Source: a bacterium (GTDB lineage: Bacteria; Joyebacterota; Joyebacteria; Joyebacterales; Joyebacteraceae). From it: DNA of 64,000 nucleotides. Positions within the stretch are counted from its first letter, which is position 1. Every line of letters begins with the position of its first letter. This document shows, piece after piece, positions 17,019-33,221 of this stretch. Under the pieces are notes generated by a model. It made no database searches, was not told where the DNA came from, and saw only the letters and a list, made by a program, of their open reading frames with translations. A program made the translations under genes and the position numbers. The stretch covers positions 2,525 to 66,524 of the forward strand of contig JALGWI010000008.1 in NCBI GenBank assembly GCA_025774245.1, in the 5' to 3' direction.

Positions 17019-17762
17019 ATGACCTGGAACGACGTCGAGGCCTGTCTCGGGGAATCGGACGGGCTCGTCGTCCCGATCGGTACGTGCGAGCAGCACGGAC
17101 TCCACCTCCCTCTCTCCACCGACACCCTCATCGCCGAAGCCTTCGCGGACAGGATCGCCGGCGCCACCGGCGTCCCGATCGCGCCGACCCTCTCCTACGG
17201 CGTGAACCTCCCGTGCGACCGCTACGTGCCGGGAACCGCCGGCCTTTCGTTCGACGGCATGCGCGAGAGCCTGCGCAATCTCATCACGGACTGGACCCGG
17301 CAGGGCTTCCGCCGCTTCTTCGTCGTGACGGCCCACGGCTGCGCGACGGACGGCTACGGCTTCGCCCATCACGAGGCGATCAAGCAGGCCGCGCTCCCGC
17401 TCCTGACCGAGCGGGTTTGCGATGTCTTTGTCCTGTTCCCATATTGGGAAGAGATAGGCGACCTCCTGACAGACCAGAGCGGCGTCGAGCACGCGGGCGA
17501 AGTGGAGACGTCGCTCGCCCTACACCTCTTCCCGGAGATGGTCCGAACCGACCTGATCCGGGACGCCGCGAATGGGGAAGAGGAGGAGCGCTACCGCGCC
17601 TTCCCGGAGGGCGTGGCGACCGGCCCGCCGCCGGCCGGATGGAACGGCGCCGAGGGGCACCCCTCGGCTGCGTCGGCGGAGACCGGGGAACGGATCTTCG
17701 AACGGTGTCTGACGGCCATGGTTCGGTTCGTCGCAGAGAGGGGAGGAGGCAGGAATTCGTGA
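17019..17762 (+). CDS. Creatininase-family amidohydrolase
   Basis: MTWNDVEA...GLVVPIGTCEQHGLHLPLSTD is the family N-terminal metal-binding motif. Confidence 0.7.
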   Translation: MTWNDVEACLGESDGLVVPIGTCEQHGLHLPLSTDTLIAEAFADRIAGATGVPIAPTLSYGVNLPCDRYVPGTAGLSFDGMRESLRNLITDWTRQGFRRFFVVTAHGCATDGYGFAHHEAIKQAALPLLTERVCDVFVLFPYWEEIGDLLTDQSGVEHAGEVETSLALHLFPEMVRTDLIRDAANGEEEERYRAFPEGVATGPPPAGWNGAEGHPSAASAETGERIFERCLTAMVRFVAERGGGRNS

Positions 17763-17976
17763 CTGAAACCCACCCTCTCCGACAGTCTCTCTGGTTGACG
17801 GGCCCGGGCAATGGTGGTACAATGACCTTGGAAGACGAGGTCTTCCGACCGGACACCCCCCTTGTTCCAGCGTCACTCGCCGCCGGGCGAGAGTCTTATG
17901 ACGCGGAATCCCCGGCGGCACATATCATCACGTGGACGACTACCCCACAGAGGGCACGCCACAGGGAGGACAGTTC

Positions 17977-18327
17977 ATGAGAACACGACGGATCCTCGAC
18001 CTACTTGTGGTCCTCGCGCTGAGCTTTGCCTTGCTCACGGCAACGGCCAGCTCGGCGAGGCAGGCTCACGTCAGCGTCACGGATCAGGGGACGGCTCCCC
18101 CGATCGCCCTGAAGGACGACGGCGACGGCGGAGACGATGATCGCTGGGGCGCCTGCGATCCCTACGATCCCGAAGATCCCGACCCCGAAGGAGAGGGTGA
18201 GGGCGACGGTGAGGAGCCAGAGGGCGACGGAGAGGTTCAGGGCGGGAACCCGAAGGCGTTCGAGACGATTCGGATGCAGCTCTCGAACATCTTCTGGCGC
18301 CTGAGGCTCATGCTCGCAGCACTCTAG
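17977..18327 (+). CDS. Small secreted acidic low-complexity protein
   Basis: Signal peptide MRTRRILDLLVVLALSFALLTATASSA, then a D/E/G/P-rich stretch (DPYDPEDPDPEGEGEGDGEEPEGDGE). Confidence 0.35.
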   Translation: MRTRRILDLLVVLALSFALLTATASSARQAHVSVTDQGTAPPIALKDDGDGGDDDRWGACDPYDPEDPDPEGEGEGDGEEPEGDGEVQGGNPKAFETIRMQLSNIFWRLRLMLAAL

Positions 18328-18378
18328 CTTCAGCCAACACGGCTCAAGCGTTCGTACCCTGCTGCGCGAGGCCAGGAT

Positions 18379-21300
18379 ATGGCTGACCGAAGGCCGGACG
18401 ATAAGCCCGAACGCGAGATGCTCGAGGCGTTCAAGAAGGCGATGGAGTCGCGGAGTGCGCGCGATGCGGCGCTCACGGCCATCCGCCTCGGAGACGTCTA
18501 CCTCGAGTCGGACAGCTACACCGACGCGCTCGGCTACTACACCCGCGCCGCGGGAACCGAGCTCGGCTCTGAGCTCGCCGACGGTGAGGTGGCCGGTCTC
18601 AATGTTCAGATCGCCAAGTGTCATCTCGGTCTCGGAAACTACGGCAAGGCGCGGGCCTGCTGCGCGAAGCTCGACGATCTCGAGCTCAGCGAGGAAGACA
18701 GCGCGGCCTGGGCGGAGGCGAACGTCGTTCTCGCGCGAATCGAGATCGAGAGCGGCCGGTACGACGAAGCCCTTCGCGCGGCGCAGAAGGCGTACGACAT
18801 ACTCAGGGTAAGCCCCGACAGCCCACTCCTCGCCGAGGCCGGCAAGGCGCTCGGCATCGCCAACGCCGAACTCGGCAACACGCAGGCGGCGCGCGACTAC
18901 TTCACCGACTATCTTGTTTCGCAGAAACGGCTCGGCAACGAGGCCGGGCTCGCCGCGGCGTACAACAACCTCGGCATTCTGGCGAAGCGGACCGGTGACC
19001 TGAACGGCGCGCTCGAGTATCTCGACAGCGCGCTCACGATCGATCGGAAGCTCGGTCGGTCGCTCGCGATCGCCGACCGCCTGACCAACACCGGCATCAC
19101 CCTCTACAGGCTCTCCAGGTGGGCCGAGGCCGAGGAGAAGCTGAACGAGGCGAAGGAGATCTACTCGAGGATCGGCGCGACGAGAGGCATCGCCGCTGCG
19201 CAGACCGCGCTCGGCAACGTCTATCGCGTGCGCCGCGAGTGGGGCCCCGCCCAGGATCTCCTCGAGAGCGCGCTCAGGGTGAGCCGCGACCACGGCTACC
19301 TCCGGACGGAGGCCCTCGCACTCGAGTTCCTCGGCGACCTCCAGATGGATCAGGGCCTGAAGCAGCAGGCGCGCGGAACGCTCGATCAGGCGCTCGGGTG
19401 CGCGTACCGGCTCGCGTCGAACAGCGACGTCGTCGGGGAGGTCCTGAGGCGTCGCGCCGAAGTGCTCTTCGCACTCGGACGGCTCGAGGACGCCGAGCGC
19501 GACTGCTCCGACGGCGTGAAGCTCTGCCGCGAGATCGGCGACAGCCTCGAGGAAGGCGCGTTCCTTCGCGTCCTGGCGAGCATCTGCTACGCCAAGGGCG
19601 AGCGCACCGCCGCAGAGGTCCTCATCGGCCGCACGGAGGACATCCTCCGGAGGGCGGGGGACTCCTTCGAGCTGGCCAAGACCGCGTTCGCCGACGCCGT
19701 CGGCATGCGCGATTCCTCGGCGCCGGGCGAGCTTCCCATCGACCGTATCGAGGCGCGCTTCTCCGCCGCCGAATCGATCTTCACGAGGATCGGCGCCGGC
19801 GACTGGGTCGCCCGGTGCGAGCTCGAGAGAGGGAAGGCGCTCCACCGCGCCGGCCAGCCCGACCGCGCGAGGACGTGGCTCGATCGCGCCAGGCTCAAGA
19901 TGGAAGTGAGCCACGACCGCGAGGGCCTGGCCGAGGTCGACGCCATTCTGAGGGAACTGGACGCGGAGCTCGAAGAGGCCGGCGTCTCCCGTCGGGGGAG
20001 GTACTCGACCATTGCGGAAGGCTACCGCTTTCTCGAGACGACCGAGCCCAAGGCGGAGGACCTGCACGAGTTCGCCATAGAGATCGCGAACGCGATCCCC
20101 GCGGACCGGCTCGTGCTCTTCTCGGTCACGGAGGAAAACGGCCCGGTCGTCGCGACCTCGGTCGATCACACGGGACGGGGAGTGGCCGAGGTCACCAGGT
20201 TCGTCCGGACCACCATCGGGAACCGCGGACACACGAGGCCGCTCATCGTCAGCGACGGGCGCTCGGCCGACGCATACTTCGCGCCGGGCGTGGGCGCCGT
20301 GGCGCTCATCCCGGGCGAGGTCGGGAACGATCGCGGGCGGACGTACCTTCTCTACACCGACCGCGCCAAGAGCGACCGGTCGACGCCGTTCACGCAGAGC
20401 GACATCGAGTTCATCGCCGCGGCCGCCCGCATGCTCGGGCTGGCGTACACGCGGGCCGGCGAATCGCACGCCTGGGAGGCGGACGGCGAGCTGGCGCAGC
20501 AGCTCAGTGAGTCGTCCGACGGGCGCGGGCTGATCACTCGGGATCCCGGCATGCTGCGGCTCCTGGCCAGCGTCGAGCGTCTGAAGGACAGCCACGTCCC
20601 GATCGTCATCCGCGGTGAGTCGGGAGTGGGCAAGGAGCTCATCGCTCGGGCGATCCACGAGGGTGGGCGCAGCAAGACGGGCCGTTTCGTCGCCTTGAAC
20701 GCCGGCGCCATTCCACCCAACCTGCAGGAGAGCGAGCTCTTCGGGCACGTCAAGGGCGCGTTCACCGACGCCGACCGCGACCGCGAGGGACTCGTTCAGG
20801 CCGCTGCCGCCGGCACGCTCTTCCTCGACGAGATCGGCGAGATGAGCTCGCAGCTCCAGGTGAAGCTCCTCAGGTTCCTGCAGAACGGGGAGTACCGACG
20901 TGTCGGCGAGAGCGTGACGAGGACGAGCGACGCCAGGGTCGTCTCGGCGAGCAACAAGGACCTCGCGGAGGAGGTCAAGGCCGGACGCTTCCGGCGCGAC
21001 CTCTTCTACAGGCTCTGCGCCGTCGTCATCCTGGTGCCGCCCCTGAGGGACAGGCCCGACGACGTCCCGCTCCTCATGGAGCACTTCCGGGAGTTCTACT
21101 CGAAGCGCGAGACCAAGCACATCCCCGGGTTCAGCCGCGAGGTGCGGGAGATCTTCCAGCGGTACGACTGGCGCGGGAATAACGTCCGCGAGCTCGAGAA
21201 CGAGGTCCGTCGGGGCGTGGCCCTGGCTGCGGACGGGGAGGTGATCGGGATCGACAAGATCAGCCCCGAGCTCCGCAGCCGCTACGAGGTCAGCCTCGGC

Positions 21301-21471
21301 GACGACGAGCCGCACCGCCGCTCTCTCAAAGACGAGGTTGGGGCGCTCGAGAAGAGCCGGATCCTGGAGGCGCTCTCGAGGACCGGGTGGAACAAGCAGG
21401 CGGCGGCCGACGTCCTCGGCCTGTCGCGCACAGGCCTCCACGCGAAGATGAAGAAGTACGGGCTCGGATAG
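18379..21471 (+). CDS. Sigma-54-dependent transcriptional activator with a large N-terminal TPR-repeat domain
   Basis: Multiple TPR-like repeats in aa 1-500. AAA+ sigma-54 interaction domain (GESGVGKELIARAIH, ESELFGHVKGAFTDA). C-terminal Fis-type HTH (AAADVLGLSRTGLHAKMKKYGL). Confidence 0.85.
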   Translation: MADRRPDDKPEREMLEAFKKAMESRSARDAALTAIRLGDVYLESDSYTDALGYYTRAAGTELGSELADGEVAGLNVQIAKCHLGLGNYGKARACCAKLDDLELSEEDSAAWAEANVVLARIEIESGRYDEALRAAQKAYDILRVSPDSPLLAEAGKALGIANAELGNTQAARDYFTDYLVSQKRLGNEAGLAAAYNNLGILAKRTGDLNGALEYLDSALTIDRKLGRSLAIADRLTNTGITLYRLSRWAEAEEKLNEAKEIYSRIGATRGIAAAQTALGNVYRVRREWGPAQDLLESALRVSRDHGYLRTEALALEFLGDLQMDQGLKQQARGTLDQALGCAYRLASNSDVVGEVLRRRAEVLFALGRLEDAERDCSDGVKLCREIGDSLEEGAFLRVLASICYAKGERTAAEVLIGRTEDILRRAGDSFELAKTAFADAVGMRDSSAPGELPIDRIEARFSAAESIFTRIGAGDWVARCELERGKALHRAGQPDRARTWLDRARLKMEVSHDREGLAEVDAILRELDAELEEAGVSRRGRYSTIAEGYRFLETTEPKAEDLHEFAIEIANAIPADRLVLFSVTEENGPVVATSVDHTGRGVAEVTRFVRTTIGNRGHTRPLIVSDGRSADAYFAPGVGAVALIPGEVGNDRGRTYLLYTDRAKSDRSTPFTQSDIEFIAAAARMLGLAYTRAGESHAWEADGELAQQLSESSDGRGLITRDPGMLRLLASVERLKDSHVPIVIRGESGVGKELIARAIHEGGRSKTGRFVALNAGAIPPNLQESELFGHVKGAFTDADRDREGLVQAAAAGTLFLDEIGEMSSQLQVKLLRFLQNGEYRRVGESVTRTSDARVVSASNKDLAEEVKAGRFRRDLFYRLCAVVILVPPLRDRPDDVPLLMEHFREFYSKRETKHIPGFSREVREIFQRYDWRGNNVRELENEVRRGVALAADGEVIGIDKISPELRSRYEVSLGDDEPHRRSLKDEVGALEKSRILEALSRTGWNKQAAADVLGLSRTGLHAKMKKYGLG

Positions 21472-21963
21472 AGGGCCCCGGGCCGGCTCTATCGGCCCCA
21501 CAGGAGTGTGCTCCACGATCTCCCCCGGGCGCGCCTGCGCCGGGGGTTTCGATTGTCCGGGAGCGGCTTCCTCTGACGGCGGACCCCGCGCCCCACCGCG
21601 TGTCCCCATGTGCCCCCCGCGTGTCCCCGCCCCCCCCCGCCGGATCCCTCCCCGCGGTCCACGTTCTCCGCAGCCTCCTCCAGGGAGGATCCGCGGCCGG
21701 AAGGCCCGCTTTGTCAGCACTTCCAGCGCGTCGAAACCTCGACGACGCGTCAAAATCTCGACGCTCTCGTAACTTCCCATTCTTCAAGCGGTTAAGGCGA
21801 TACCCCCCCGAGACACCGTACGGACCGTCGAAAACGTGCCATGAGGCTGAATCATCAACCATTTGAGCTCGGCGAGCGCGGCCGTAAACTACAGATGGGC
21901 CACATGTTACATGGAGGCTGTCAGAACATGGCTGAGCGGTCATTCAGCCGTTTCTGGCATGGT

Positions 21964-22185
21964 CTATGCGGTAGTAGGGTATCGGTTGGATTGAAAATCG
22001 AATATGGGAGGAAGAGGCGGCCAGGGTGTTAATAATGCAGGGGGGGCGAGTCCGGTCGCTCTTTGGTTCGCCTCTTTCTTCCTGACTCTCGGCTCCCCGG
22101 AAGATTCGGGGGGATGAAAATAGAGGGTTGTTATGCCGAGCACGGTGAGAGTGAGAATGAAGGTAATGGTCGTGATCCTGCTCAT
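21964..22185 (-). other. Small ORF (73 aa, N-terminal transmembrane helix) with atypical low-GC codon usage inside a low-GC patch. Coding status uncertain.
   Basis: MSRITTITFILTLTVLGITTLYF... AGGTGA lies 9 nt upstream. Codons are ATT/ACT/ATA/TTT-rich, unlike the surrounding GC3-rich genes. Confidence 0.2.
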
Positions 22186-22359
22186 CGGTATCGCATCACC
22201 TGTGCTCGGCTGAGATTACGACAGCTCGCGAAAGCACCCGCAGCTGTAATCGATATAGACAGAGCGGCAGAGCAACGGTCAGCGTCACAGCAAGGAGCAC
22301 ACACTAACAGCACCACCAGCGCGGTTCTTCTCCGCGGGCTCCGTTCCGAGCAGCAACTC

Positions 22360-22376
22360 TGGTCAGCATTTTGCTT
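22360..22376 (+). promoter_or_regulatory. Candidate sigma-54 (-24/-12) promoter upstream of the radical SAM gene
   Basis: TGGTCAGCATTTTGCT: GG and GC at the consensus 12-nt spacing, with a TTGCT -12 element (consensus TGGCACG-N4-TTGCW). A weaker second match TGGCATGGTCTATGCG lies at 21955-21970. Confidence 0.3.
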
Positions 22377-22568
22377 CTCACCTTTCGAGGACGGAGCTGG
22401 CCCACACGGCCGGCAGGAAAGCAGATGACTCTCCCGCAACTGCCCTGCCGGCCGAACCTCGTTCTGGAACAGCATCCCCTTTCATTCGCACCGTCCCGCA
22501 CACCCGAGTCGCAGCGACAGCGCGTCGCGCAGGCCACGCGCTGAGCTCGATCCCCGTCGTTCGCGCTG

Positions 22569-22619
22569 CCCCTGAGATCTGTCCCCGAGGTCCATCCCCG
22601 AGATCCACCCCCGAGAACC
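22569..22619 (+). repeat. Four tandem ~12-13-bp direct repeats CCCC(T)GAG(A/G)(T/A)(C) immediately upstream of the radical SAM maturase start
   Basis: CCCCTGAGATCT / GTCCCCGAGGTCC / ATCCCCGAGATCC / ACCCCCGAGAACC, read directly from the sequence. A partial fifth copy GATCCCCGTCG sits ~25 nt upstream. Confidence 0.55.
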
Positions 22620-22620
22620 A

Positions 22621-25113
22621 TTGGAGAGCAGACCCGCCGTGACGGACCATCGCGTCGAGCTCAGACGTATCGCCGATGGGTTCGCGGCCGCACTCGCTGA
22701 CGTGCGCGGGGCGCCGGGAACCGCAGGAAGCGACAGGGGGCTTCGGCCCGACAACCTGTCTCTCATGATGCCGTTCTATCTCATCGAGGCGGAGCCGTTC
22801 GACGGAGACGTCGACGCCGCGCGCGTGATGGCGCTCGGCAACGCCTTCGGCGCCACCCACTTCCTTCTCCAGGACAGAGAACTCGACGGCGACGAACGGC
22901 CGAGCCCGGGGGGCTGCCACCTGTCGGATCGGTGCCTCGTCCTCTTCGCGCGCCAGTACGGGCGGCTCTTCTCGGGCGGGAGGTTCTGGAGCTTCCTCGA
23001 TCGCTACCTCGGCGAGTACTTCGCGAGCCTCTCGTGGGAGCGCGAGGTGCTGGGGACCCGCGCGGGGGCGGCGGCCGTTTCCGAGGACGAGTTGCCGTCG
23101 ACCCTCACCAGACTCGGGCACAAGATCTCTCCTCTGAAGGCGTGTGCGTGCGCGGTGTCGATGCTCGCGGGGCGTGAGGATCGCCTGCCGCTGATGGAAC
23201 GGGTGATCGAGAGGTTCCACACGGCGTACCAGCTCGCTGACGATCTGGAGGACCTGGCGGACGATCTCGAGGCGAATCGGTGGTCGGTCGTGAGCTGGAT
23301 CCTGGCGCGCTCGGCCGGGCTCGACGAGCCGCCCGCCGGCCGCGCGGTCGATCGACTCCTCTCCGGCGGGCTCGCTGCCGGGGCGCTGCCCGCGATCATC
23401 GATACTATAGACGAGAACTACGCTTCCGCGATCGAGGACGCCGAGAGGCTCGGTGCGCCCTCGCTTCGCTCGCACCTCGAGCGGTGTCGCCGGCGGACGG
23501 CGGCCATCCACCACTGGATGTCGCGGCGGCTCTCGATCGTCCTGAGATCGATGGAGGGGGCCGGCGGGACGGAGGGACCGCGCGCGGAGAACACCGGCTC
23601 GCTCCGGGCGGACGCGCCCGCCCGTCTCCTCCGCCGGGTGCACGCGTTCGAGGTACGGGGCCAGGCGTACGTTCTCGATATCGACTCGGGCCTCTTCTTC
23701 GAGGCGGACCGGCTGGCGTTCGACGTGATCGAATGGCTCAGGCGCGGCGCGGGTCAGGCCGAACTCGACGTGCTGCGGATGAACTCGGGGCAGGAGCCGG
23801 TCGGCGAGGCGATCCGCGAGGTCTGGGGCCTGGTCGATCCGGGCGCGCCCACGCTCCCGGCGGGCGACGAATCCGGCGGGCTCCCGCTCTGGGACGACGT
23901 GCCCGGCGACGTGCTGCCGCCCGGGATCGCCGCGCTGGCGCTCAACCTCACCGACGGGTGCAACCTCCGGTGCGACTACTGCTATCTCGGCGGGAACGCG
24001 GAGGCGAGCCCGCAGGCGACACCGGCCGCGCCCCCGGGCACGGCTCCCGCCGCGAACGGCGGCGTGGCGCCGGTGCTCATGTCCGAGGAGACGGCGCTCC
24101 GCGCCGTCGATCTCCTCATCGACGAATCGCTCGGCGAGTCGCGTCTCTCGATCGTCTTCTTCGGCGGCGAGCCGCTTCTGAACCCGTCGCTCATCGAGAG
24201 CGTCGTCGGCCACGCCAGGAACCGCGTGCGTGCGGACGGCCGCGCCGTGACCTTCCACATGACCACGAACGGGACGCTCCTGACACCGCGGATGTCGGAA
24301 CGCCTGCACTCGCTCGGCGTGGGCATCCTCGTGAGCATCGACGGCGCCGCGTGCGACCACGACGCGCACCGCGTCTTCCCCGGCGGCGGAGGTTCGTACT
24401 CGACGATCGTCGCGAACCTCCTGGGGCTGCCGGAGGGGATGCGGGTCGGAGCGCGGGCGACCGTCACGGAGGAATCGCGCCCGCTCAGCGTGATCGTGGA
24501 GCACCTGAGGGGGCTCGGGTTCTCCGTGGTGCACCTCGCGCCGGTGAGCGGGCCGCCGATGTCGGCTGAGTTCTCCTCGCGACTCTGTGACGAGTTCGAG
24601 GAGCTCGCGCGCCGGGAACTCGAGGCGGTGCGCGACGGGCGGCCGCCGTCGGTGGGGAATCTCGTCGAGCCGGTTCTGGCGCTGCGGACCGGTGCGCGGC
24701 GGCCCGCCCCGTGCGGCGCCGGAGCGCGCTACGTCGCCGCGGGAGCGGACGGCACACTGTCGTTCTGCCACCGCTTCGCCGGCGACGCGCGGTTCGTCGT
24801 GGGCGACGTGGGGGGCGGGCTCGATCGCGACGCGGTGAGGCGCCTCCTCGGGCGGCTCCCCGCCGAGGCGGCCGCGTGTCGCGAGTGCTGGGCGCGCCAC
24901 CTCTGCGGCGGACCGTGCCTGTACGACCTCACGTACTCTCCCGAGGACACGGTCGGCAACGACGCGCCTCGCTGCCGGCTGAGGCGCAGGATCTTCGAGC
25001 TGGCGATGTGGATCTACGCTTCGCTGCCGGGAGATGGGCGCGCGAGGCTGGCGGGCATCGCGAGGAGGGACGTGAGGCCCGAGATCGGAGCCGGGAAGGA
25101 GCCAGGGTCGTAA
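22621..25113 (+). CDS. Radical SAM/SPASM peptide-modifying enzyme with an RRE (PqqD-like) domain and an additional ~330-aa N-terminal domain of unknown function
   Basis: CNLRCDYCY (CxxxCxxC) radical SAM motif. C-terminal SPASM Cys cluster (CGAGARY...FCHRF...CRECWARHLCGGPC). RRE-like segment VHAFEVRGQAYVLDIDSGLFFEADRLAFDVIEWL. N-terminal domain has an acidic QLADDLEDLADDLE motif. An alternative GTG start at 22639 has a better RBS (GGAGAG). Confidence 0.85.
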   Translation: MESRPAVTDHRVELRRIADGFAAALADVRGAPGTAGSDRGLRPDNLSLMMPFYLIEAEPFDGDVDAARVMALGNAFGATHFLLQDRELDGDERPSPGGCHLSDRCLVLFARQYGRLFSGGRFWSFLDRYLGEYFASLSWEREVLGTRAGAAAVSEDELPSTLTRLGHKISPLKACACAVSMLAGREDRLPLMERVIERFHTAYQLADDLEDLADDLEANRWSVVSWILARSAGLDEPPAGRAVDRLLSGGLAAGALPAIIDTIDENYASAIEDAERLGAPSLRSHLERCRRRTAAIHHWMSRRLSIVLRSMEGAGGTEGPRAENTGSLRADAPARLLRRVHAFEVRGQAYVLDIDSGLFFEADRLAFDVIEWLRRGAGQAELDVLRMNSGQEPVGEAIREVWGLVDPGAPTLPAGDESGGLPLWDDVPGDVLPPGIAALALNLTDGCNLRCDYCYLGGNAEASPQATPAAPPGTAPAANGGVAPVLMSEETALRAVDLLIDESLGESRLSIVFFGGEPLLNPSLIESVVGHARNRVRADGRAVTFHMTTNGTLLTPRMSERLHSLGVGILVSIDGAACDHDAHRVFPGGGGSYSTIVANLLGLPEGMRVGARATVTEESRPLSVIVEHLRGLGFSVVHLAPVSGPPMSAEFSSRLCDEFEELARRELEAVRDGRPPSVGNLVEPVLALRTGARRPAPCGAGARYVAAGADGTLSFCHRFAGDARFVVGDVGGGLDRDAVRRLLGRLPAEAAACRECWARHLCGGPCLYDLTYSPEDTVGNDAPRCRLRRRIFELAMWIYASLPGDGRARLAGIARRDVRPEIGAGKEPGS

Positions 25114-25157
25114 CGCCGGGTTGGAGGCGAGTGGGAGTGGGAAGGGAGGTGGTGGGA

Positions 25158-25334
25158 GTGAGGTACCTGAGGATCGCGAACGGGCCGGGAGTGGCCCGTG
25201 CGTGGAGTTCGCGGAGCTCGAAGAAAGACGTCTGTCTGATCGACTACGCGAGCTGCGCGGGATCGGACGTCTGCTGGCTGCTCGACATCGAGAGCGACTG
25301 CATGTCGAACGACGGCTGCATCGTCGACACCTAA
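25158..25334 (+). CDS. RiPP precursor peptide 1 (Cys/Asp-rich, ranthipeptide-like)
   Basis: (M)RYLRIANGPGVARAWSSRSSKKDVCLIDYASCAGSDVCWLLDIESDCMSNDGCIVDT. GTG start 8 nt after GAAGGGAGG; alternative GTG starts at 25149 and 25152. Five Cx3-4D units. Lies immediately 3' of the maturase. Confidence 0.6.
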   Translation: MRYLRIANGPGVARAWSSRSSKKDVCLIDYASCAGSDVCWLLDIESDCMSNDGCIVDT

Positions 25335-25384
25335 TGAGGCCGCACGATGTGCGGGACGGGAATCCGGGATCGGGGAAGGGGGTG

Positions 25385-25570
25385 GTGAGGTTGAAGCACC
25401 TGAGACTCGCCAACGGCGCAGAGGGCGCGGCCGGGACGGTACGAATGGCGCCCAGTCCGTTCCTCTGCTACATCTTCATCGACTGGGGAGACTGCAACTC
25501 GATCGACCAGTGCGGGTTCGACTTCGCGGACTGCGTGAGTGGCGGGGACATCTGTCTCATCGACTACTAG
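25385..25570 (+). CDS. RiPP precursor peptide 2 (Cys/Asp-rich, ranthipeptide-like)
   Basis: (M)RLKHLRLANGAEGAAGTVRMAPSPFLCYIFIDWGDCNSIDQCGFDFADCVSGGDICLIDY. GTG after a GGGGAAGGGGG RBS. An alternative ATG at 25334 overlaps the peptide 1 stop. Five Cx3-5D units. Confidence 0.6.
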   Translation: MRLKHLRLANGAEGAAGTVRMAPSPFLCYIFIDWGDCNSIDQCGFDFADCVSGGDICLIDY

Positions 25571-25646
25571 AGCCGGAGGCGGGAGAGGCACCGGGTTCCC
25601 GGGGGCCGCGGTCGCCGGGGACCCGTGGGGAGGGAGAGGAGGCGCC

Positions 25647-25814
25647 GTGAAGCACCTGAGACTCAAGAACGGACCCGTGTCGGGATCTGCCGCACACGCG
25701 GCACGGGAGTGCTGCGTCCCGTACATCGATTGGGGCGGATGCAACGCGGTCGACTACTGCGGGCAGGACGTCCTGGACTGCCTGGGGGGTGATCTCTGTG
25801 ACCTCGACTACTAG
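25647..25814 (+). CDS. RiPP precursor peptide 3 (Cys/Asp-rich, ranthipeptide-like)
   Basis: (M)KHLRLKNGPVSGSAAHAARECCVPYIDWGGCNAVDYCGQDVLDCLGGDLCDLDY. This is the only in-frame start after the peptide 2 stop and it is preceded by GGAGGGAGAGGAGG. Six Cys, each followed by Asp at +3 to +5. Confidence 0.65.
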   Translation: MKHLRLKNGPVSGSAAHAARECCVPYIDWGGCNAVDYCGQDVLDCLGGDLCDLDY

Positions 25815-27195
25815 ATCGGCGCGGTCCGCGGGCGCGGGTGTGGCTCGCGGGGCCGGCGCGCTCGGCCCACCGGTCGTTCTCGCCGTGCTGCTCGGCGCGC
25901 CGGTCGGAGCGGCGGGCGGGCTTGCCTTCGAGCAGCTGTGGGAGGTACCGCTGGGGCTTCCGTCCCGGGGTACCTCGGACGTGCGCCTCGTCGACTTCGA
26001 CGGGGACGGTCGGACGGAGATCCTGATCGCGCGCTGGCGGCGAGGCGAGCCGGGCGACCTCCTGGTCCTCGATGGGGCGACCGGTAGCGAGAGCTGGCGG
26101 GTCGGCCTCGAGGAGCGGCCGTACGTCGAGACGTGCGACGTCGGTGGGGACGGCAGGATCGAGGTGCTCGCCGCCGTCGGCAACGGACTTCTCGTGATCG
26201 ACGGGGCGTCGGGCGAAACGATCACGACCGTGGGGCTTGCGGGCGAAGCCGGCGCGCTCGCGGTCGGGCACCTCGACGGCGACGAGACCGTGGACGTCGT
26301 CTACGCGGCCGGTGACGAGCGATGCGACGTGCTCGTCGCGCTCGCCGGAGCGGGGGAGAAGGAACTCTGGCGGCGGGAGGCGGAGCCGGCGGAAGGGCGC
26401 TTCGACGAGGGCTTCGGGTTCCTCGTCGCGACCGACGTCGACGGTGACGGTCTGGACGAGGTGCTCGTGACGGAGAACATGAACGTCCTTCTCTGTCTCG
26501 CTTCCGGAGGCGACCTCTCCTGGTCGGCGGTCCTCGGCGAGAAGGGGACGCTCGTTCCGGAGGGCGCCGCGAGCTCCGTTCCGGTCGTCGCGGATCTCCT
26601 GGGCGACGGCGTCAACGAGATCGCCGTCGGCTGCTACGCGGGAGCGCTCGTCGTTCTCGACGGAGCGACCGGCGAGGCGCTCTCGCGGTCGGCCCCGTTC
26701 GGGATCGAATCGCACGCCCGGTACACAAAGAGGGGACGGTTCACTCGTCCCCTCCGCGAGCTCCTGGCGAGGACGGGCGAACCGATCCTCGGGCTCCTGG
26801 CGGTCGATCTGGTCGGTGGGCCCGCGCGCGAACTCGCGTTCGGATGCGCCGACGGCATCTTCTACGCCGTCGATCCTCGCACGGGCACGGAACTCTGGCG
26901 CTACGAGGAGGGAGGCAAGGTCACCGAGCCTGCCGTCGCGCTCGACGCCACGGGCGACGGCGTCGCCGATCTCCTCGTCCGGGACCAGGGGGGAGCGTTC
27001 GTGCTCGACGGGACCGGCGAGGGCGAAGTCGATGTCGGGCCGCTCCCCGACGTGCGCGCCGCCTCGAGCGTCGTCGCGGGCGATGTGAACGCGGACGGCG
27101 TTCTCGATCTGGTCGTCGTGAGCGTGAGGGAGAACCGCGTGGCCGCATGGACGACGGGACTCCCGTGTCCGTCGTCGAACGAGAAGTCGCGATGA
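25789..27195 (+). CDS. Secreted FG-GAP/VCBS-repeat (beta-propeller-like) protein
   Basis: Repeated DxDGDG motifs (DFDGDGRTE, DVGGDGRIE, DVDGDGLDE, DVNADGVLD, DATGDGVAD). Hydrophobic N-terminal segment. The start is uncertain because it overlaps the peptide 3 3' end. Confidence 0.65.
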   Translation: MISVTSTTRSARSAGAGVARGAGALGPPVVLAVLLGAPVGAAGGLAFEQLWEVPLGLPSRGTSDVRLVDFDGDGRTEILIARWRRGEPGDLLVLDGATGSESWRVGLEERPYVETCDVGGDGRIEVLAAVGNGLLVIDGASGETITTVGLAGEAGALAVGHLDGDETVDVVYAAGDERCDVLVALAGAGEKELWRREAEPAEGRFDEGFGFLVATDVDGDGLDEVLVTENMNVLLCLASGGDLSWSAVLGEKGTLVPEGAASSVPVVADLLGDGVNEIAVGCYAGALVVLDGATGEALSRSAPFGIESHARYTKRGRFTRPLRELLARTGEPILGLLAVDLVGGPARELAFGCADGIFYAVDPRTGTELWRYEEGGKVTEPAVALDATGDGVADLLVRDQGGAFVLDGTGEGEVDVGPLPDVRAASSVVAGDVNADGVLDLVVVSVRENRVAAWTTGLPCPSSNEKSR

Positions 27196-27887
27196 GCGCC
27201 GGGGCGACACCTGCCGCGTCGCTCGTCTCTCTCCTGAACGTCCGGAAGTCCTACGGCAAGCGGGGGCGCTCGGTCGAAGCGCTCGCTCCGCTCACGCTCT
27301 CGGTCGGTCGGGGAGAGTCCGTCGCGCTGGTCGGACCGAACGGTGTCGGGAAGACGACGGCGCTCAAGATCGTCGCGACGCTCGTCGAGCCGACGTCCGG
27401 CACGGCGATCGTGTGCGGACACGACGTCGTCGGCGATTCCGGACGGGCGCGCCGCGCCGTCGGCGTGTCCCTCGGGTCTCGCCGCTCGTTCTACTGGAGA
27501 CTGACCACGCGGCACAACCTGTCGTTCTTCGCGAGGCTCAGGGGCGTCCGCGGCGCGAGGATCCCCGCGGAGATCGACCAGGTCGCCCGTGAGATGGGAC
27601 TCGGTCCGAACCTGGACCTTCCGGTCAGACGCCTCTCGCGGGGAGCGCTCGCGAGGCTCTCCGTCGGGCGGGCGATGCTCGGGGATCCCACCGTGCTCCT
27701 TCTCGACGAACCCCTGGCGTCGGTCGATCGCGCCGGGCGAGAGCTCGTCTGGCGCGCGATCGAGAGACGCCTCGCCGCCGGCGCCTGTCTGCTCCTGGCG
27801 ACCCACGAACCGGAGGTGGCGTCCCGGTGCGGCTCGGCCGTGTCGCTCGCCGGAGCTCCCCGCGTGCCGGGGAGGGCGGCGCGATGA
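27192..27887 (+). CDS. ABC transporter ATP-binding protein
   Basis: Walker A GPNGVGKTT, signature LSRGALARL, Walker B LLLDEP. ATGA start-stop overlap with the upstream gene. Confidence 0.8.
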   Translation: MSAGATPAASLVSLLNVRKSYGKRGRSVEALAPLTLSVGRGESVALVGPNGVGKTTALKIVATLVEPTSGTAIVCGHDVVGDSGRARRAVGVSLGSRRSFYWRLTTRHNLSFFARLRGVRGARIPAEIDQVAREMGLGPNLDLPVRRLSRGALARLSVGRAMLGDPTVLLLDEPLASVDRAGRELVWRAIERRLAAGACLLLATHEPEVASRCGSAVSLAGAPRVPGRAAR

Positions 27888-28735
27888 GAGACGACGTTCA
27901 CTGGCTCCGACGCGCGGTCCGCGCGGCGCGGATCCTGTGCGGCGTGGCGTGGGCGTTCGCGTCGCGGAGCGTCGCCACGTACGCGAGCTACCGGGCCAAG
28001 CTCTCGCTCGGGCTGGCGTCGCTCGTCCTGTCGCTCGTGACGTTCTCGTTCGTCGGCCGCGTCGTCTCGAGCGCCGGCTCCGGGTTCGTCGACCGCTACG
28101 GGATGAGCTACTCGTCGTTTGTCATCGTCGGCGTGCTCGTCCACGGCGCGGCCTCCGCCGGGCTCTCGTCGTTCCGCTCGTCGGTGCGCCGCGAGCAGCT
28201 CCAGGGGACGCTCGAGCTCCTCGCCGTCACGCCGGTTCCCGTGCCGCTCGTCCTGTTCCTCTCCGGGCTCGGCGAGATCGCCATCGCCGCGGCGGGCGGC
28301 GCGGCCCTTCTCGCGCTCGCGGCTGTGTTCCTCGGCTTCGAGATCACGCTCTCGCTCCCGCTCGTCGCGGCCGTCGTCCTCTACGGTGTCGCCGCGTGCG
28401 GGATCGGTCTCGCCTCCGCGGGGATCATCCTCGTCTCGAAGGAGGGCGAGCCGCTCTCCTGGGGGTTCGGGGCGATCGCCGGGCTCGTGGGCGGCGTCTA
28501 CTTCCCGGTCGACCTCCTGCCTTCGTGGCTGCGGCGCGTCTCGGTCGCCCTTCCCACCACGCACGCGCTTCGCCTCGCCCGCGCGGGCCTCTCGGGGGCC
28601 GGCGCCGACGCGTCGACGTCCTCGTCGCTCGTCCTCCTCGGGGCCACCGCCGGTCTCGCGCTGGTCGCCGGGTTTCTCGTCCTCCACTGGGGATACCGCT
28701 CCGCGCGGCGCGCGGGGACGCTCGGGGAGTACTAG
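27884..28735 (+). CDS. ABC-2 type transporter permease
   Basis: Six predicted transmembrane helices. Translationally coupled (ATGA) to the ATPase. Confidence 0.75.
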   Translation: MRDDVHWLRRAVRAARILCGVAWAFASRSVATYASYRAKLSLGLASLVLSLVTFSFVGRVVSSAGSGFVDRYGMSYSSFVIVGVLVHGAASAGLSSFRSSVRREQLQGTLELLAVTPVPVPLVLFLSGLGEIAIAAAGGAALLALAAVFLGFEITLSLPLVAAVVLYGVAACGIGLASAGIILVSKEGEPLSWGFGAIAGLVGGVYFPVDLLPSWLRRVSVALPTTHALRLARAGLSGAGADASTSSSLVLLGATAGLALVAGFLVLHWGYRSARRAGTLGEY

Positions 28736-28897
28736 ACGTCCCGCGATCGCGCCGCCCGGCGCACCCGCCCGCTTTCCGCTTGCTCTCGTCTCACGCCGTA
28801 GTGTCTAATGAGAGGATCGCCGCTCGCGCCGGTCGTTCCTCGCGGTGGACGCGTCCCGCGCCGCCGCGATCGCCGCACCCGACTCCGGAGTTCCGCG

Positions 28898-30706
28898 ATG
28901 ACCTCGAAAAGGCCCAGCTATCTCCCGATCGCGTCGATCGTCGTGGGCATCGTCATTCTCGCGATCGCCGTCGGCGTCGCCTCGTTCCGCGACATCGACC
29001 GGGGACGCCAGCAGGTCGCTGACGTGCTCGACCGCCAGGCGAGGTTCGCGATCGGGTCGCTCGGGGCGGCCGTGCGGGCCAGCTTCATGGCGCCGAACTG
29101 GGATCGACCGCACCTCGATCTGATCCTGCAGGGCGCGGCGGGCGACGAGGAGATCAGCCACGTGGCGATCCTCGACGCCGACGGGACGATCGTCGCGCAC
29201 AGCGATCCCGAGCGGGTCGGAACCGTCTGGGAGGGGAGCGGGCTTCTCGAGGCCGTGGCGGACCGGCGGTTCTTCGCAAGTCGCGTCATTCAGACCGACG
29301 GCCTGACGGTCCACGAGTACGTGGCGCCGTTCCCTCCGTTCCCGCGCCGTCTCACCGCGGCCATGATCCGGCGGGCGCCGCACAGGATCCTCGAGCTCGA
29401 GGCCATGTACGGCCGCATCTCGGTGCTCCTGAACAGGCGGGTCGCACCCGGCGAGAACCTCAATCTCTTCATGGTGATCGGCCTCGACTCGACGCAGCTC
29501 GACGCCGGGTTCCTCGCGTCGAGGAACCACACGTTCATGATGTCCGGCATCCTCCTTCTGATCGGCGGCATCGCGATCTACTTCCTCTTCCTGATGGCTC
29601 ACTACCGGTCGGTCAGGACGGCCCTCGCGAACATGCGTTCGTACACGACCAACGTGATCGAGAGCATGGGGAGCGGACTCGTCTCGTTCGACGCCGACGC
29701 GCGTCTCGTCACCGTGAACTCGAGGGCTCGCTCCCTTCTCAGCATTCCCTCGGGCGATGTCGCGGGTACGCCGATCGACGACGTCCTCGCCTTCGAATCG
29801 GACGCCGACAGGGCCGGCGTCTACGGCGTCATGAGCGGCGCCGCGGACACGTTCGAGTCCGAGGCCAGGCTCGTCGCGGGGAGCGACACCATCCCGGTGG
29901 CCCTCGCCGCCTCGTCGCTCAGGGACGAGGCGGGGGAGCGGTCGGGGTCGGTCGTGCTGCTCCAGGACATGCGCGAGATCGAATCGCTCAAGGAGGAGGT
30001 CGCGAGGGAACGCCACCTGGCGTCGCTGGGCAGGCTCGCGGCGGGCGTCGCGCACGAAGTCAGAAACCCCCTGAGCTCGCTCAAGGGTTTCGCCCAGTTC
30101 CTCCGGACCAAGTTCACGCCAGGGTCCCGGGAGGAGCGATACGCCGACATCATGATCGAGGAGGTCGAGCGGCTCGACCGCGTCGTTCAGGAACTCCTCG
30201 ACTTCGCGAAGCCGATCACGCCCGAGAAGAGGGCGGCCGATCTGAACGCGATCGTCGAGGAAGCGCTCTCGCTCGTCGTCGACGACGCCCTCTACAGAGA
30301 GGTCGAGATCGCGCGGGAGCTGGGCGACGGTCTCCCGCACGTGTTCGTCGACCCCGGGCAGGTTAAGCAGGCGCTTCTCAACATCCTCCTGAACGGACTC
30401 GAGTCGATGGGCGACGACGGCGGGACGCTCACCGTGGCGACGTCGGCCGATGGCGGCTCGGGTGGCAGCGTCGCGATCGCCGTCTCCGACACGGGAGCCG
30501 GCATGACGGACGAGGAGATCGCGAAGCTCTACGAGCCGTTCTACACGACGAAGCCGTCGGGCACGGGTCTCGGCCTCACGATCGTGTCGAGGATCATCGA
30601 GCAGAACGACGGTCACGTCCGCGTCGCGAGCGCGAAGGGCGAGGGAACGACGTTCACGATCGAGCTGCCGGCGGCGTCGGGACGCGGCGCGCGGCCGGCC
30701 GCCTGA
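28898..30706 (+). CDS. Sensor histidine kinase (NtrB/AtoS-like) with a periplasmic sensing domain, PAS, HisKA and HATPase
   Basis: Two N-terminal transmembrane helices flank a ~190-aa loop. H-box HEVRNPLSSLKGF. ATP-binding motifs (DTGAGMTDEE, GTGLGL). Confidence 0.8.
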   Translation: MTSKRPSYLPIASIVVGIVILAIAVGVASFRDIDRGRQQVADVLDRQARFAIGSLGAAVRASFMAPNWDRPHLDLILQGAAGDEEISHVAILDADGTIVAHSDPERVGTVWEGSGLLEAVADRRFFASRVIQTDGLTVHEYVAPFPPFPRRLTAAMIRRAPHRILELEAMYGRISVLLNRRVAPGENLNLFMVIGLDSTQLDAGFLASRNHTFMMSGILLLIGGIAIYFLFLMAHYRSVRTALANMRSYTTNVIESMGSGLVSFDADARLVTVNSRARSLLSIPSGDVAGTPIDDVLAFESDADRAGVYGVMSGAADTFESEARLVAGSDTIPVALAASSLRDEAGERSGSVVLLQDMREIESLKEEVARERHLASLGRLAAGVAHEVRNPLSSLKGFAQFLRTKFTPGSREERYADIMIEEVERLDRVVQELLDFAKPITPEKRAADLNAIVEEALSLVVDDALYREVEIARELGDGLPHVFVDPGQVKQALLNILLNGLESMGDDGGTLTVATSADGGSGGSVAIAVSDTGAGMTDEEIAKLYEPFYTTKPSGTGLGLTIVSRIIEQNDGHVRVASAKGEGTTFTIELPAASGRGARPAA

Positions 30707-30723
30707 GCCGCGAGGGGAATCGG

Positions 30724-32067
30724 ATGGACGCCAGGAGCATGAGGATCCTCGTCGTCGACGACCAGTCGAGTGTGCGGCAGCTTCTCAAGGCCGTGCTCGA
30801 GGAGGACGGACACGAGATCGACACGGCGCCCGACGGGGAGAAGGCGCTCGAGGCCGTCGCCGCGGGCTACCACGACCTCGTCGTGATGGACATCCGGATG
30901 CCGGGGATCGACGGCGTCGAGGCGCTCGAGCGGATGCGCGCGTCGAGCCCTCAGACGGCCGTCGTCATGATGACCGCGTACGCCTCGGTCGAGACCGCGG
31001 TGCGGGCCATGAAGCTCGGCGCCTTCGACTACGTCACGAAGCCGATCGACATCGACGAGGTCCGGGCCGTCGTCGCGCGGTTCATCGAGTCGTCCGGCCC
31101 TCCCGACGCCGTCGAGGAGGCGCCGCCCAAGCCGTCGAGGGAGATCATCGGGGCGAGCGAGACGTTCCGGGAGATGCTCTCGGTCGTCCACAGGGTCGCC
31201 GAGAGCGACGCGAGCGTTCTCCTTCTCGGCGAGAGCGGGACCGGCAAGGAGGTCATCGCGAAGGAGATCCACCGCGCCGGCCCCCGCGCCCGGAAGCCGT
31301 TCGTCGCCATCAACTGCTCTGCGATCCCGGAGGGTCTCCTCGAGAGCGAGCTCTTCGGGCACGAGAAGGGCGCGTTCACCGGTGCGGTCCGTCTGAAGAA
31401 GGGACGCTTCGAGCTGGCCAACGGCGGCACGGTTTTCCTCGACGAGATCGGCGACATGTCGCGGGCGCTCCAGGCGAAGCTCCTGAGGTTCCTCCAGGAC
31501 CACACGCTGTCGAGGGTCGGAGGAGGGCAGGACATCACGGTTGACGTCCGCGTGGTCGCGGCGACGAACCGCGATCTCGAGCGCGCGGTGGCGGACGGCG
31601 ACTTCCGCCAGGACCTCTACTTCCGGCTGAACGTCGTCACGATCACGATCCCGCCGCTCCGCGATCGCCAGGAAGACGTGCCGCTCCTGGTGGAGCACTT
31701 CCTGAAGCTCCACGCGCCGGAACGGGGCAAACCGAAGAAGATGTCGCCGCGCGCGATGCGCATCGCCATGAACTACGACTGGCCCGGGAACGTCCGCGAG
31801 CTCGAGAACGCCGTCCAGAGGGCGGTCGTCCTCTCGCGCGGAGAGACGATCTTCCCCGAGCACCTGCCCGCGAAGGTGCAGGCGACGGGCGGCGATCCCG
31901 GGGCTGAGACGCTCGAGGTGGGGAAGACCATCCGGGAGGTCGAGCGGGACATCATCGAGAAGACACTCAAGCAGACCGACGGGAACCGCACGAAGGCATC
32001 CGAGATCCTCGGCATCTCGCGGCGGACCCTCCAGAACAAGATCAAGGAGTACAAGATCGACCTCTGA
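30724..32067 (+). CDS. Sigma-54-dependent response regulator (NtrC/AtoC family)
   Basis: REC domain (VVDDQSSVRQLL...D). AAA+ domain (GESGTGKEVIAKEIH, ESELFGHEKGAFTGA). C-terminal Fis HTH. Confidence 0.9.
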   Translation: MDARSMRILVVDDQSSVRQLLKAVLEEDGHEIDTAPDGEKALEAVAAGYHDLVVMDIRMPGIDGVEALERMRASSPQTAVVMMTAYASVETAVRAMKLGAFDYVTKPIDIDEVRAVVARFIESSGPPDAVEEAPPKPSREIIGASETFREMLSVVHRVAESDASVLLLGESGTGKEVIAKEIHRAGPRARKPFVAINCSAIPEGLLESELFGHEKGAFTGAVRLKKGRFELANGGTVFLDEIGDMSRALQAKLLRFLQDHTLSRVGGGQDITVDVRVVAATNRDLERAVADGDFRQDLYFRLNVVTITIPPLRDRQEDVPLLVEHFLKLHAPERGKPKKMSPRAMRIAMNYDWPGNVRELENAVQRAVVLSRGETIFPEHLPAKVQATGGDPGAETLEVGKTIREVERDIIEKTLKQTDGNRTKASEILGISRRTLQNKIKEYKIDL

Positions 32068-33209: not shown

Positions 33210-33221
33210 TGCGCGCTCCGT

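Follow-up and report, generated by a model that had tools for sequence, protein, structure and literature searches.

A Conserved Cys/Asp-Rich Small-Peptide Operon of Uncultured Candidatus Eisenbacteria with a Radical SAM/SPASM Maturase Fused to a PalQ-like Domain

We analyzed a stretch of 64,000 nucleotides from contig JALGWI010000008.1 (assembly GCA_025774245.1, positions 2,525 to 66,524 of the forward strand), here called the window, in which the gene for a radical S-adenosylmethionine (SAM)/SPASM enzyme is followed by three small open reading frames (ORFs) rich in Cys and Asp. An original prediction, made by a model from the nucleotide sequence, had described these genes as a ranthipeptide-like locus, that is, one for peptides that ribosomes synthesize and that are modified after translation (RiPPs). 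The maturase gene and the three tandem ORFs are indeed present where that prediction had placed them, and the ORFs, which we call pepA, pepB, and pepC, encode peptides of 55–59 amino acids (Table 1). They belong to a conserved Cys/Asp-rich small-peptide operon of uncultured Candidatus Eisenbacteria. Its maturase is, judging from its sequence, a PalQ-family prenyltransferase-like domain fused to a QhpD/PapB-like thioether synthase.

A Shine–Dalgarno (SD) sequence precedes each of the three peptide genes. A GTG start, which had been proposed for all three, holds for pepA and pepC; translation of pepB more likely begins at TTG 25391 than at the in-frame GTG 25385 upstream of it, because the orthologous peptides all start with M-K/R-H-L. 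Public annotations of pepB disagree, with versions of 59, 73, and 78 amino acids. The expectation that gene finders would miss such peptides was not borne out: pepB is already an unnamed gene call at NCBI and JGI, pepC is an unnamed call of 55 amino acids, and even a 26-amino-acid mini-ORF upstream of the maturase gene has been called in JGI data. Related peptides likewise exist in public data as calls for hypothetical proteins. Such peptides are undescribed, not uncalled.

Alignment of the three peptides reveals invariant L4, R5, N8, and G9 at the N-terminus and invariant Cys and Asp columns over the C-terminal two thirds. In the window peptides, 15 of the 16 core Cys residues carry an Asp at positions +3 to +5, a coupling attained by 4 of 200,000 composition-preserving shuffles of the cores, and the repeated Cys–Asp units that had first drawn attention to the locus are therefore well founded. 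Over a total of 27 peptides, an Asp follows at the same distance for 134 of 142 Cys residues. A hidden Markov model (HMM) of the peptides run against all six frames of the window, which also served as a check for further copies, returned the three peptides as its only significant matches (next best E = 1.5). Searches of the peptides against NCBIfam and Pfam, including the Pfam model of the QH-AmDH gamma subunit, gave no family match.

Orthologous loci were collected through the maturase. Its relatives number 47 in a collection of 5.8 billion proteins; nearly all are ~800 amino acids long and 44–54% identical, and those with a named source come from Candidatus Eisenbacteria metagenome-assembled genomes. 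When metagenomes were scanned with just its N-terminal part, 24 loci were obtained. The corresponding scan of a genome collection with the whole maturase was dominated by genuine QhpD of Pseudomonas and relatives, with one short Eisenbacteria contig, and was kept as a source of QhpC and QhpB sequences. Each locus that runs past the maturase gene has two or three peptide ORFs directly 3' of it, as detected with the peptide HMM, and the orthologues have a purine-rich, GGAGG-type SD sequence and an ATG or GTG start.

The spacing of Cys and Asp is kept in these orthologues, as the original prediction would have it: all five Cys and all five Asp residues of the core are retained across ~15 independent loci. 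Class A orthologues (13 loci) follow the pattern C-x2-D-Y-x2-C-x3-D-x-C-W-x2-D-x4-C-x3-D-x-C-x2-D-T, and class B orthologues (11 loci) the pattern LCYIFIDWGxCxxxDxCxFDxxxCxxxDxCLxDY, with a shared C-terminal Tyr. Class C is represented by the window and by locus L081, where it is the third peptide. Almost all cores contain the C-x2-D-Y unit. Median pairwise ratios of nonsynonymous to synonymous substitution (dN/dS) are 0.50 for class A and 0.28 for class B, with the hypervariable linker included. In locus L105, a far more remote fusion protein (P0081) has on its 3' side a 61-amino-acid peptide with an RHVRLVN leader and the core CNCETSDTCSIVDFGSGCGEIDSCGVDYT, built on the same plan.

Small ORFs in a high-GC genome may also be chance frames, and the window does contain long spurious ORFs on the antisense strand, at 18001–21780 (−, 1259 amino acids) over an activator gene and at 22378–25413 (−, 1011 amino acids) over the maturase gene. 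We do not count these two as genes; they are Arg/Pro/Gly-rich shadow frames of the sort usual in high-GC DNA. In ~15 loci, the three peptide ORFs keep their position, their length, the context of their starts, and their Cys/Asp pattern; their dN/dS is below 1, and a homologous peptide stands behind the far more distant L105 fusion protein. That they are chance frames is thus next to inconceivable, and we treat them as genes.

We then considered the C-terminal, radical SAM/SPASM half of the maturase. The original prediction had called the protein an 830-amino-acid radical SAM enzyme with a RiPP recognition element (RRE). Its assignment to the radical SAM/SPASM enzymes stands, with the three Cys residues of the CX3CX2C motif and seven SPASM Cys residues invariant in 21 homologues; the protein is actually a fusion of two enzymes, and the RRE is assigned by alignment. 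The public call of the protein (P0001) has 824 amino acids, which fits a start six codons later, at GTG 22639. In whole-protein comparisons with NCBIfam, the maturase scores 240.9 bits against QhpD (cutoff 453), 229.7 against PapB (cutoff 340), 207.2 against the nif11-type maturases, 170.2 against the SCIFF maturase (cutoff 425), and 42.6 against the anaerobic sulfatase maturase. All of the best whole-protein family matches fall under the curated cutoffs. Over the common core of 284 residues, PapB (209.6 bits) and QhpD (207.0 bits) tie. These scores indicate that the maturase represents a sister family to PapB and QhpD and is a member of neither equivalog, and they favor the ranthipeptide-like reading, the sulfatase maturase being far behind. 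The closest solved structure is that of CteB (5wgg, 1.3e-43), which aligns over its full length from residue 6; the alignment therefore takes in the N-terminal leader-binding domain.

The chemistry of the two nearest families is informative. In CX3D motifs, PapB links the Cys sulfur to the Asp C-beta, and 0–6 intervening residues are tolerated (PMC9413430), so the spacings found here are covered. QhpD forms three Cys-to-Asp/Glu thioethers in QhpC (PMC7876137), and "QhpD-like ranthisynthases" are already a grouping in the field (PMC10288494). Closeness to QhpD hence supports a thioether reading, since QhpD performs this chemistry and has been grouped with the ranthisynthases. It had been suggested that clustering with the maturases of quinohemoprotein amine dehydrogenase (QHNDH) rather than with RiPP maturases would speak against the locus. 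This is a false dichotomy, as the chemistry is the same and the new peptides have a leader like those of QhpC and SCIFF. The maturase also carries a C716-H717-R718 (CHR) motif. The QhpD of locus L007 likewise has LCHRF, whereas CteB has HQ at the same place. In PapB, H377 and R378 have been modeled to hold the acceptor carboxylate (PMC10739248), and the CHR motif may occupy the equivalent position. From the identity of these enzyme neighbors, and from a conservation that is confined to Cys and Asp and couples the two in position, it is likely that each core acquires five Cys-to-Asp thioether links. With considerably more confidence, we consider it very likely that the locus is a RiPP operon and that the radical SAM half acts on its precursors. 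An in-line topology of the rings is a guess from the spacing.

The peptides and the maturase are connected through the leader as well. The Eisenbacteria peptides start with M-[KRT]-H-L-[RK]-x-A-N-G, and ~22–27 residues precede the first Cys, which is not the very short leader originally described. Similarity of the leaders also extends to the nucleotide level, as had been noted, with an identical stretch of 15 nucleotides, aagcacctgagactc, common to pepB and pepC. All 53 QhpC peptides from qhp loci (L002–L080; for example, L007 at 8406–8729) start with MKH or MRH followed by L and K, R, or Q, typically as MKHLK[APS][ILV]N, and the SCIFF peptide of locus L077 starts with MKHIKTVN. In a profile–profile comparison (hhalign), the new leader aligns with that of QhpC over the first 15 residues only, a short match with P = 4.9e-4, and the cores beyond it are unrelated to QhpC. 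An N-terminal leader motif common to QhpC, SCIFF, and the new peptides is thus apparent from the sequences. The QhpC match, although short, seems consistent with homology in the leader-binding region of the maturase: profiles of QhpD, nif11-type, and SCIFF maturases align from their own positions 1–4, starting at residue ~339 of the maturase. The isolated RRE-like segments of six family members gave no PqqD match in Pfam at E ≤ 10, and the putative RRE is accordingly one defined by homology to the N-terminal part of QhpD, of ScfB, and of CteB.

The likeness to the qhp system raises the question of whether the stapled peptides could be, instead of free natural products, small subunits or ligands that join the propeller protein encoded downstream in a functional periplasmic complex, possibly with a Cys/Trp-derived cofactor, in the manner of QhpC and QhpB. 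In addition to the QhpC-like leader and a radical SAM core equally close to QhpD and PapB, the order of maturase, peptide, secreted propeller, and ABC exporter parallels qhpD-qhpC-qhpB with QhpF (PMC7876137), and the propeller gene keeps its tight linkage in L105, distant as this locus is. In B- and C-type cores, a Trp lies six residues after a Cys, as do Cys37 and Trp43 of QhpC, and the ternary complex of the Trp-modifying QhpG with QhpD (PMC7876137) finds a parallel in the domain fusion. The conserved block, however, has no QhpA-like dihaem cytochrome, QhpG flavoprotein, or QhpE protease, and profile–profile comparison of the FG-GAP propeller with QhpB detected no homology (hhalign probability 4.8%). 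The peptides do not match the QH-AmDH gamma model, and the divergent paralogues, of which each locus has two or three, with hypervariable residues between their motifs, look more like RiPP precursors than like an enzyme subunit. We therefore regard a QHNDH-like role as unlikely.

The remaining 335 residues of the maturase, at its N-terminus, conform to the all-alpha fold of trans-isoprenyl-diphosphate synthases. They have no significant Pfam match themselves; Pfam polyprenyl_synt is matched weakly by 7 of 13 family members, and all 14 of the weak PDB sequence matches of the domain are trans-prenyltransferases. Comparison of the domain profile with 22 Paenibacillus PalQ-type proteins gave an hhalign probability of 99.5% (E 2.7e-23, 209 columns), and hmmsearch gave 74–84 bits for the best eight PalQ-type proteins listed. 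MppC, a lanthipeptide prenyltransferase, was considered as a relative and ruled out, as it is an ABBA-fold enzyme.

PalQ has an isoprenoid-synthase fold and prenylates the C-terminal Trp of an NHLP precursor; its Asp pairs bind metal, and Q197 contacts the indole (PMC10853753). Two invariant acidic motifs, HFLLQD(R/D)xLDGD and YQLADDLEDLxxDL, are found in the N-terminal domain. Residues D85, D89, K173, Q204, D207, D208, D211, and D215 do not vary among 21 fusion proteins with an overall identity of only ~50%. D85, D89, and K173 are kept in 21 of 21 diverse family members, most of which have DDxxD and three of which have DH. D85/D89, D207/D211, and Q204 align with D89/D93, D200/D204, and Q197 of PalQ, by way of the Paenibacillus protein P0215, the numbering of which matches the published PalQ residues K39, D89, D93, Q197, D200, and D204 (PMC10853753). 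Of the A-type cores, 12 of 13 keep a Trp that might serve as acceptor, and so do 11 of 11 cores of the B type; this Trp is internal, the precursors ending in Tyr or Thr. Based on the homology, the conserved catalytic residues, and the RiPP context of the family, prenylation of the peptide by this domain is suggested at even chances.

Different chemistry in a RiPP operon is the other alternative of weight: the links could be of the sactionine C-alpha type or could involve acceptors other than Asp, or the PalQ-like domain could be an inert docking or chaperone module. The sub-cutoff scores against both equivalogs and the similarity to nif11-type and SCIFF maturases leave room for such links. The D-R-x-x-D form of the first Asp motif in most members and the absence of Trp from some cores do the same for an inert domain, and a role in binding only is conceivable because PalQ also binds the leader, contacting both leader and core of its substrate (PMC10853753). 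However, Cys and Asp are the sole residues invariant throughout the cores and are coupled in position, the CHR motif is held in common with QhpD, and invariance of the eight residues of the PalQ-like domain named above would be hard to explain without catalysis. Other chemistry appears improbable to us, less so than a QHNDH-like role.

We propose the following scheme for Cys-to-Asp stapling with lipidation. Transcription would start from a sigma-54 promoter and pass through a structured leader RNA containing the 26-amino-acid mini-ORF. The leader MKHL[RK]xANG of the two or three precursors would dock on the RRE-like region of the bifunctional maturase, the radical SAM half of which would abstract a hydrogen atom beside the Asp carboxylate and join this position to the thiol of the Cys 3–5 residues upstream. 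The product would contain five small in-line Cys-S-C(beta)-Asp rings per ~33-residue core (−10 Da). With a prenyl diphosphate and Mg2+, the fused PalQ-like domain would lipidate the bound peptide, most likely at the conserved core Trp and alternatively at the Tyr of C-x2-D-Y. The leader would presumably be removed, a DrrAB-like ABC-2 transporter would export the product, and the secreted FG-GAP propeller would act on it or bind it outside the cytoplasm; for the last two steps, synteny is the guide. Taken as a whole, a sigma-54-controlled RiPP operon of this kind, to date known from Candidatus Eisenbacteria and related metagenome contigs alone, is on balance probable.

Several observations count against this scheme. 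The maturase scores under the PapB (340) and QhpD (453) equivalog cutoffs, and neither the choice between C-alpha and C-beta nor that between in-line and nested rings can be read from sequence. The first Asp motif of the Eisenbacteria members is mostly D-R-x-x-D, with Arg instead of Asp in second place, and the domain could be a noncatalytic peptide-binding module. Both the NHLP leader and the C-terminal Trp that PalQ needs are missing here, and the L105 peptide and one of the C-type peptides have no Trp at all, which makes the acceptor uncertain. No protease or leader peptidase is encoded within the conserved block, and the function given to the FG-GAP protein is a guess.

The operon is embedded in a block of genes whose order, as determined by tblastn with the window proteins, is identical across loci (Table 1). 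A gene for a sigma-54 activator with TPR repeats is followed by a gap of 1–2.8 kb, the maturase gene, the peptide genes, and the FG-GAP propeller gene; genes for an ABC ATPase, an ABC-2 permease, a histidine kinase, and a sigma-54 response regulator come next. The activator, an enhancer-binding protein, is 67–83% identical in each locus that extends that far 5' of the maturase gene (tblastn), a conservation much higher than that of the maturase, and its AAA+/helix-turn-helix (HTH) part is similar to the downstream response regulator (tblastn). The FG-GAP protein begins with a hydrophobic, signal-peptide-like segment, and its gene is found immediately 3' of the peptide genes in each sufficiently long locus, including L105. 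Some 4 kb 3' of the block lies a TldD/PmbA metallopeptidase pair (36353–39068, +); pairs of this type are able to process RiPP leaders.

Table 1. Positions of the genes and sequence elements in the window, numbered from its first nucleotide
Feature	Position	Strand	Remarks
TPR + sigma-54 enhancer-binding protein, 1030 aa	18379..21471	+	opens conserved block
Sigma-54 type −24/−12 box TGGCATGGTCTATGC	21955..21969	+	TGGCA[CT]-N5-[AG]TGC; 15/15 gaps, aligned position
Structured 5' leader RNA element	21990..22130	+	covarying hairpin (RNAalifold)
Invariant 23-mer GGGGCGAGTCCGGTCGCTCTTTG	22043..22065	+	exact in 21/21 loci holding upstream region, always on + strand
Mini-ORF, 26 aa, MPSTVRVRMKVMVVILLIGIASPVLG	22133..22213	+	hydrophobic, single-helix-like; AGAGG SD 5'
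Two further RNA helices	22322..22454	+	RNAalifold, 12 loci
Helix GCTCCGTTCC/GGACGGAGC around second GG-N10-GC box TGGTCAGCATTTTGC	22360..22374 (box)	+	
11-bp GC hairpin CGGCCGGCAGG/CCTGCCGGCCG	22407..22417 / 22444..22454	+	9/11 pairs invariant
Maturase ORF, 830 aa from TTG	22621..25113	+	two-enzyme fusion
PalQ-family prenyltransferase-like domain, residues 1–335	22621..23625	+	trans-isoprenyl-diphosphate-synthase fold
Leader-binding (RRE-like) region, residues ~339–435	23635..23925	+	QhpD/ScfB/CteB-type homology
Radical SAM core + full SPASM, residues ~436–830	23926..25113	+	Pfam Radical_SAM
CX3CX2C (C447/C451/C454)	23959..23982	+	invariant in 21 homologues
SPASM Cys C698, C716, C753, C756, C762, C766, C785	24712..24975	+	invariant in 21 homologues
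pepA, 58 aa, core CLIDYASCAGSDVCWLLDIESDCMSNDGCIVDT	25158..25334	+	GTG start, SD 5'
pepB, 59 aa, core CYIFIDWGDCNSIDQCGFDFADCVSGGDICLIDY	25391..25570	+	TTG start favored, SD 5'
pepC, 55 aa, core CCVPYIDWGGCNAVDYCGQDVLDCLGGDLCDLDY	25647..25814	+	GTG start; top match of peptide HMM
FG-GAP/VCBS-type beta-propeller, secreted	25840..27195	+	Pfam FG-GAP_3 4.9e-23; start codon uncertain
ABC transporter ATP-binding protein, DrrA-like	27192..27887	+	NCBIfam drrA subfamily 6.4e-41, Pfam ABC_tran; syntenic in all loci
ABC-2 type permease	27884..28735	+	Pfam ABC2_membrane 2.1e-9; syntenic
Sensor histidine kinase	28808..30706	+	syntenic, 50–55% identity (L092, L094, L096, L098, L099); kinase features from sequence
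Sigma-54-dependent response regulator	30724..32067	+	syntenic, 73–74% identity; receiver + AAA+ + HTH from sequence

The gap 5' of the maturase gene is 1.15 kb long in the window, and its conserved elements lie at 21955–22460 (+). The first of these is the sigma-54 type box. A loose sigma-54 pattern is not enriched window-wide, and it is the positional conservation across loci that makes this box credible. A near-consensus sigma-54 box, TGGCATGCCGGTTGC (one mismatch), was also seen just 3' of the response regulator gene at 32285–32299 (+), where it precedes the ORFs 32118–33209 and 33220–34770, neither of which has a Pfam match.

The box is followed by the structured leader RNA element, in which RNAalifold predicts a basal helix with seven compensatory pairs around an invariant apical hairpin topped by the 23-mer. 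Coding of the 23-mer was ruled out, as its frame differs among loci and the length of its G-run varies; an antisense ORF of 73 amino acids at 21964–22185 was also dismissed, because neither its length nor its end is conserved. The mini-ORF that comes next is kept in 13 of 13 loci and ends in ..VVILLIGIASPFLG, with a stop common to 12 of the 13 (L089 has two additional codons). Its variation falls at third positions, and its indels come in multiples of 3; it may encode a small membrane protein or act as a regulatory upstream ORF. For the two further helices, RNAalifold gives 21 pairs, 7 of them compensatory, and all but one of these 7 are in the first helix. A scan of 17000–33000 against Rfam returned nothing relevant. 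From these features, the ~650-nucleotide leader appears conserved and structured, and it is a candidate new regulatory RNA; the invariant RNA 3' of a sigma-54 promoter would be a new regulatory element.

Comparison with characterized systems reveals that the parts of the locus are of known kinds, namely, a synthase of the ranthipeptide type, a domain of the PalQ type, and a leader of the QhpC/SCIFF type. PapB and PapA, the freyrasin system of Paenibacillus polymyxa, offer a radical SAM/SPASM enzyme that falls in one clade with the new maturase and is its joint best NCBIfam match, a repeated Cys-Xn-Asp core (six CX3D motifs with Cys-S to Asp C-beta links; PMC9413430), and an N-terminal leader containing Asn. 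Unlike PapA, the new peptides have five units with mixed x2/x3/x4 spacing and come in two or three paralogous types. Unlike PapB, the maturase has a QhpD/ScfB-type RRE-like region and an extra PalQ-like domain of 335 residues; the FG-GAP propeller, the ABC-2 exporter, sigma-54 control, and the host phylum further set the operon apart from the freyrasin system.

The qhp system has in common with the operon its QhpD, which is the best whole-protein match and aligns from its very N-terminus, a QhpC leader that starts with MKHL-basic-x-x-N, a secreted beta-propeller gene after the peptide gene, and the involvement of an ABC exporter. A Trp-modifying enzyme also accompanies the radical SAM enzyme in qhp loci, QhpG there and, as we infer, the fused PalQ-like domain here. 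In contrast to qhp, the block contains no homologues of QhpA, QhpB, QhpE, or QhpG; the peptides fall outside the gamma-subunit family, their spacing is x2–x4 rather than the x5–x8 of QhpC, and the propeller is of an unrelated sequence family.

PalQ, and more distantly ComQ, shares with the N-terminal domain its homology, fold, Asp pairs, and indole-contacting Gln, as well as linkage to a RiPP precursor and a neighboring histidine kinase. PalQ itself is a stand-alone protein of 312 amino acids in a three-gene cluster without a radical SAM enzyme (PMC10853753), whereas the domain here is fused to one, is paired with a QhpC-type leader and a Trp that is internal or sometimes absent, and mostly has DRxxD. 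The SCIFF system (ScfB/CteB) provides the closest solved structure, a leader of the form MKH[IL]K..N, and Cys-rich substrates of ~45–60 residues encoded beside the maturase. The new maturase nevertheless reaches only 170.2 bits of the 425 required for the SCIFF maturase, its peptides match none of the NCBIfam or Pfam models scanned, and CteB has HQ where the new enzyme and QhpD have HR. To our knowledge, SCIFF acceptors are not Asp, and the acceptor set here is a different one.

No title or abstract matching the fusion, the precursor family, the FG-GAP partnership, or the leader RNA was found in a search that had most subscription journals outside its reach, and none of them is in NCBIfam or Pfam. 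Ranthipeptides are few, and those characterized are, as far as we know, nearly all from Firmicutes. To these, the operon adds a family that is conserved, has multiple precursors, and comes from an uncultured phylum; its Cys-Xn-Asp design has five units and mixed ring sizes. The fusion predicts peptides that are both lipidated and stapled by a single polypeptide, which would be attractive for peptide engineering since PapB and PalQ are each already in use as tools. The common leader and the shared order of maturase, peptide, and propeller genes tie ranthipeptides to QhpC/QhpD cofactor maturation and bear on their mutual origin.

A broader proposal, which we put forward only tentatively and hold to be doubtful as a whole, is that the Eisenbacteria fusion makes lipidated, multiply thioether-stapled peptides ("prenyl-ranthipeptides") of a new class, that these work with a dedicated extracellular propeller and are controlled by way of the new structured leader RNA, and that the PalQ-like domain marks a large, unrecognized family of RiPP-tailoring enzymes. 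The domain profile, searched against 1.84 billion representative proteins, matched 1,205 of them at E ≤ 1e-3; with the threshold at E ≤ 1e-10, 341 remained. The best 150 matches listed are mostly stand-alone proteins of ~310–330 amino acids; among the same 150 there are also radical SAM/SPASM fusions (~760 amino acids) and proteins of ~1,100 amino acids that combine a squalene-hopene-cyclase-like part, the domain, and a radical SAM/SPASM part (such as P0085 and P0087). Occurrence of PalQ-like proteins in radical SAM, NHLP, and lanthipeptide clusters makes the family a genome-mining handle for prenylated RiPPs. If the broader proposal were true, the family (~1,200 representative clusters) would be one habitually paired with or fused to PapB/QhpD-like radical SAM enzymes, and partners resembling squalene-hopene cyclase, ICMT, and Rce1 would hint at widespread bacterial peptide–isoprenoid hybrid chemistry.

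The surroundings of individual family members illustrate this variety. Locus L108 encodes a PapB-like radical SAM enzyme, a domain protein, an NHLP precursor ending in GGCVW (core CVW), and a histidine kinase, which is the layout of the published PalQ system with its histidine kinase, its NHLP precursor ending in Trp, and PalQ (PMC10853753). Loci L114 and L115 encode a radical SAM/SPASM enzyme, two NHLP precursors (cores CYAGCCGVD and CYAGMCGKD), a domain protein, and an ABC transporter, and in L111 a LanM-like protein adjoins the domain relative. In L113, a Frankia_peptide precursor occurs together with two radical SAM enzymes, with a methyltransferase of the ICMT family, and with a squalene-hopene-cyclase-like protein. 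Finally, the three-domain fusion of L106 is followed by genes for an Rce1-like CPBP protease and a polyketide synthase.

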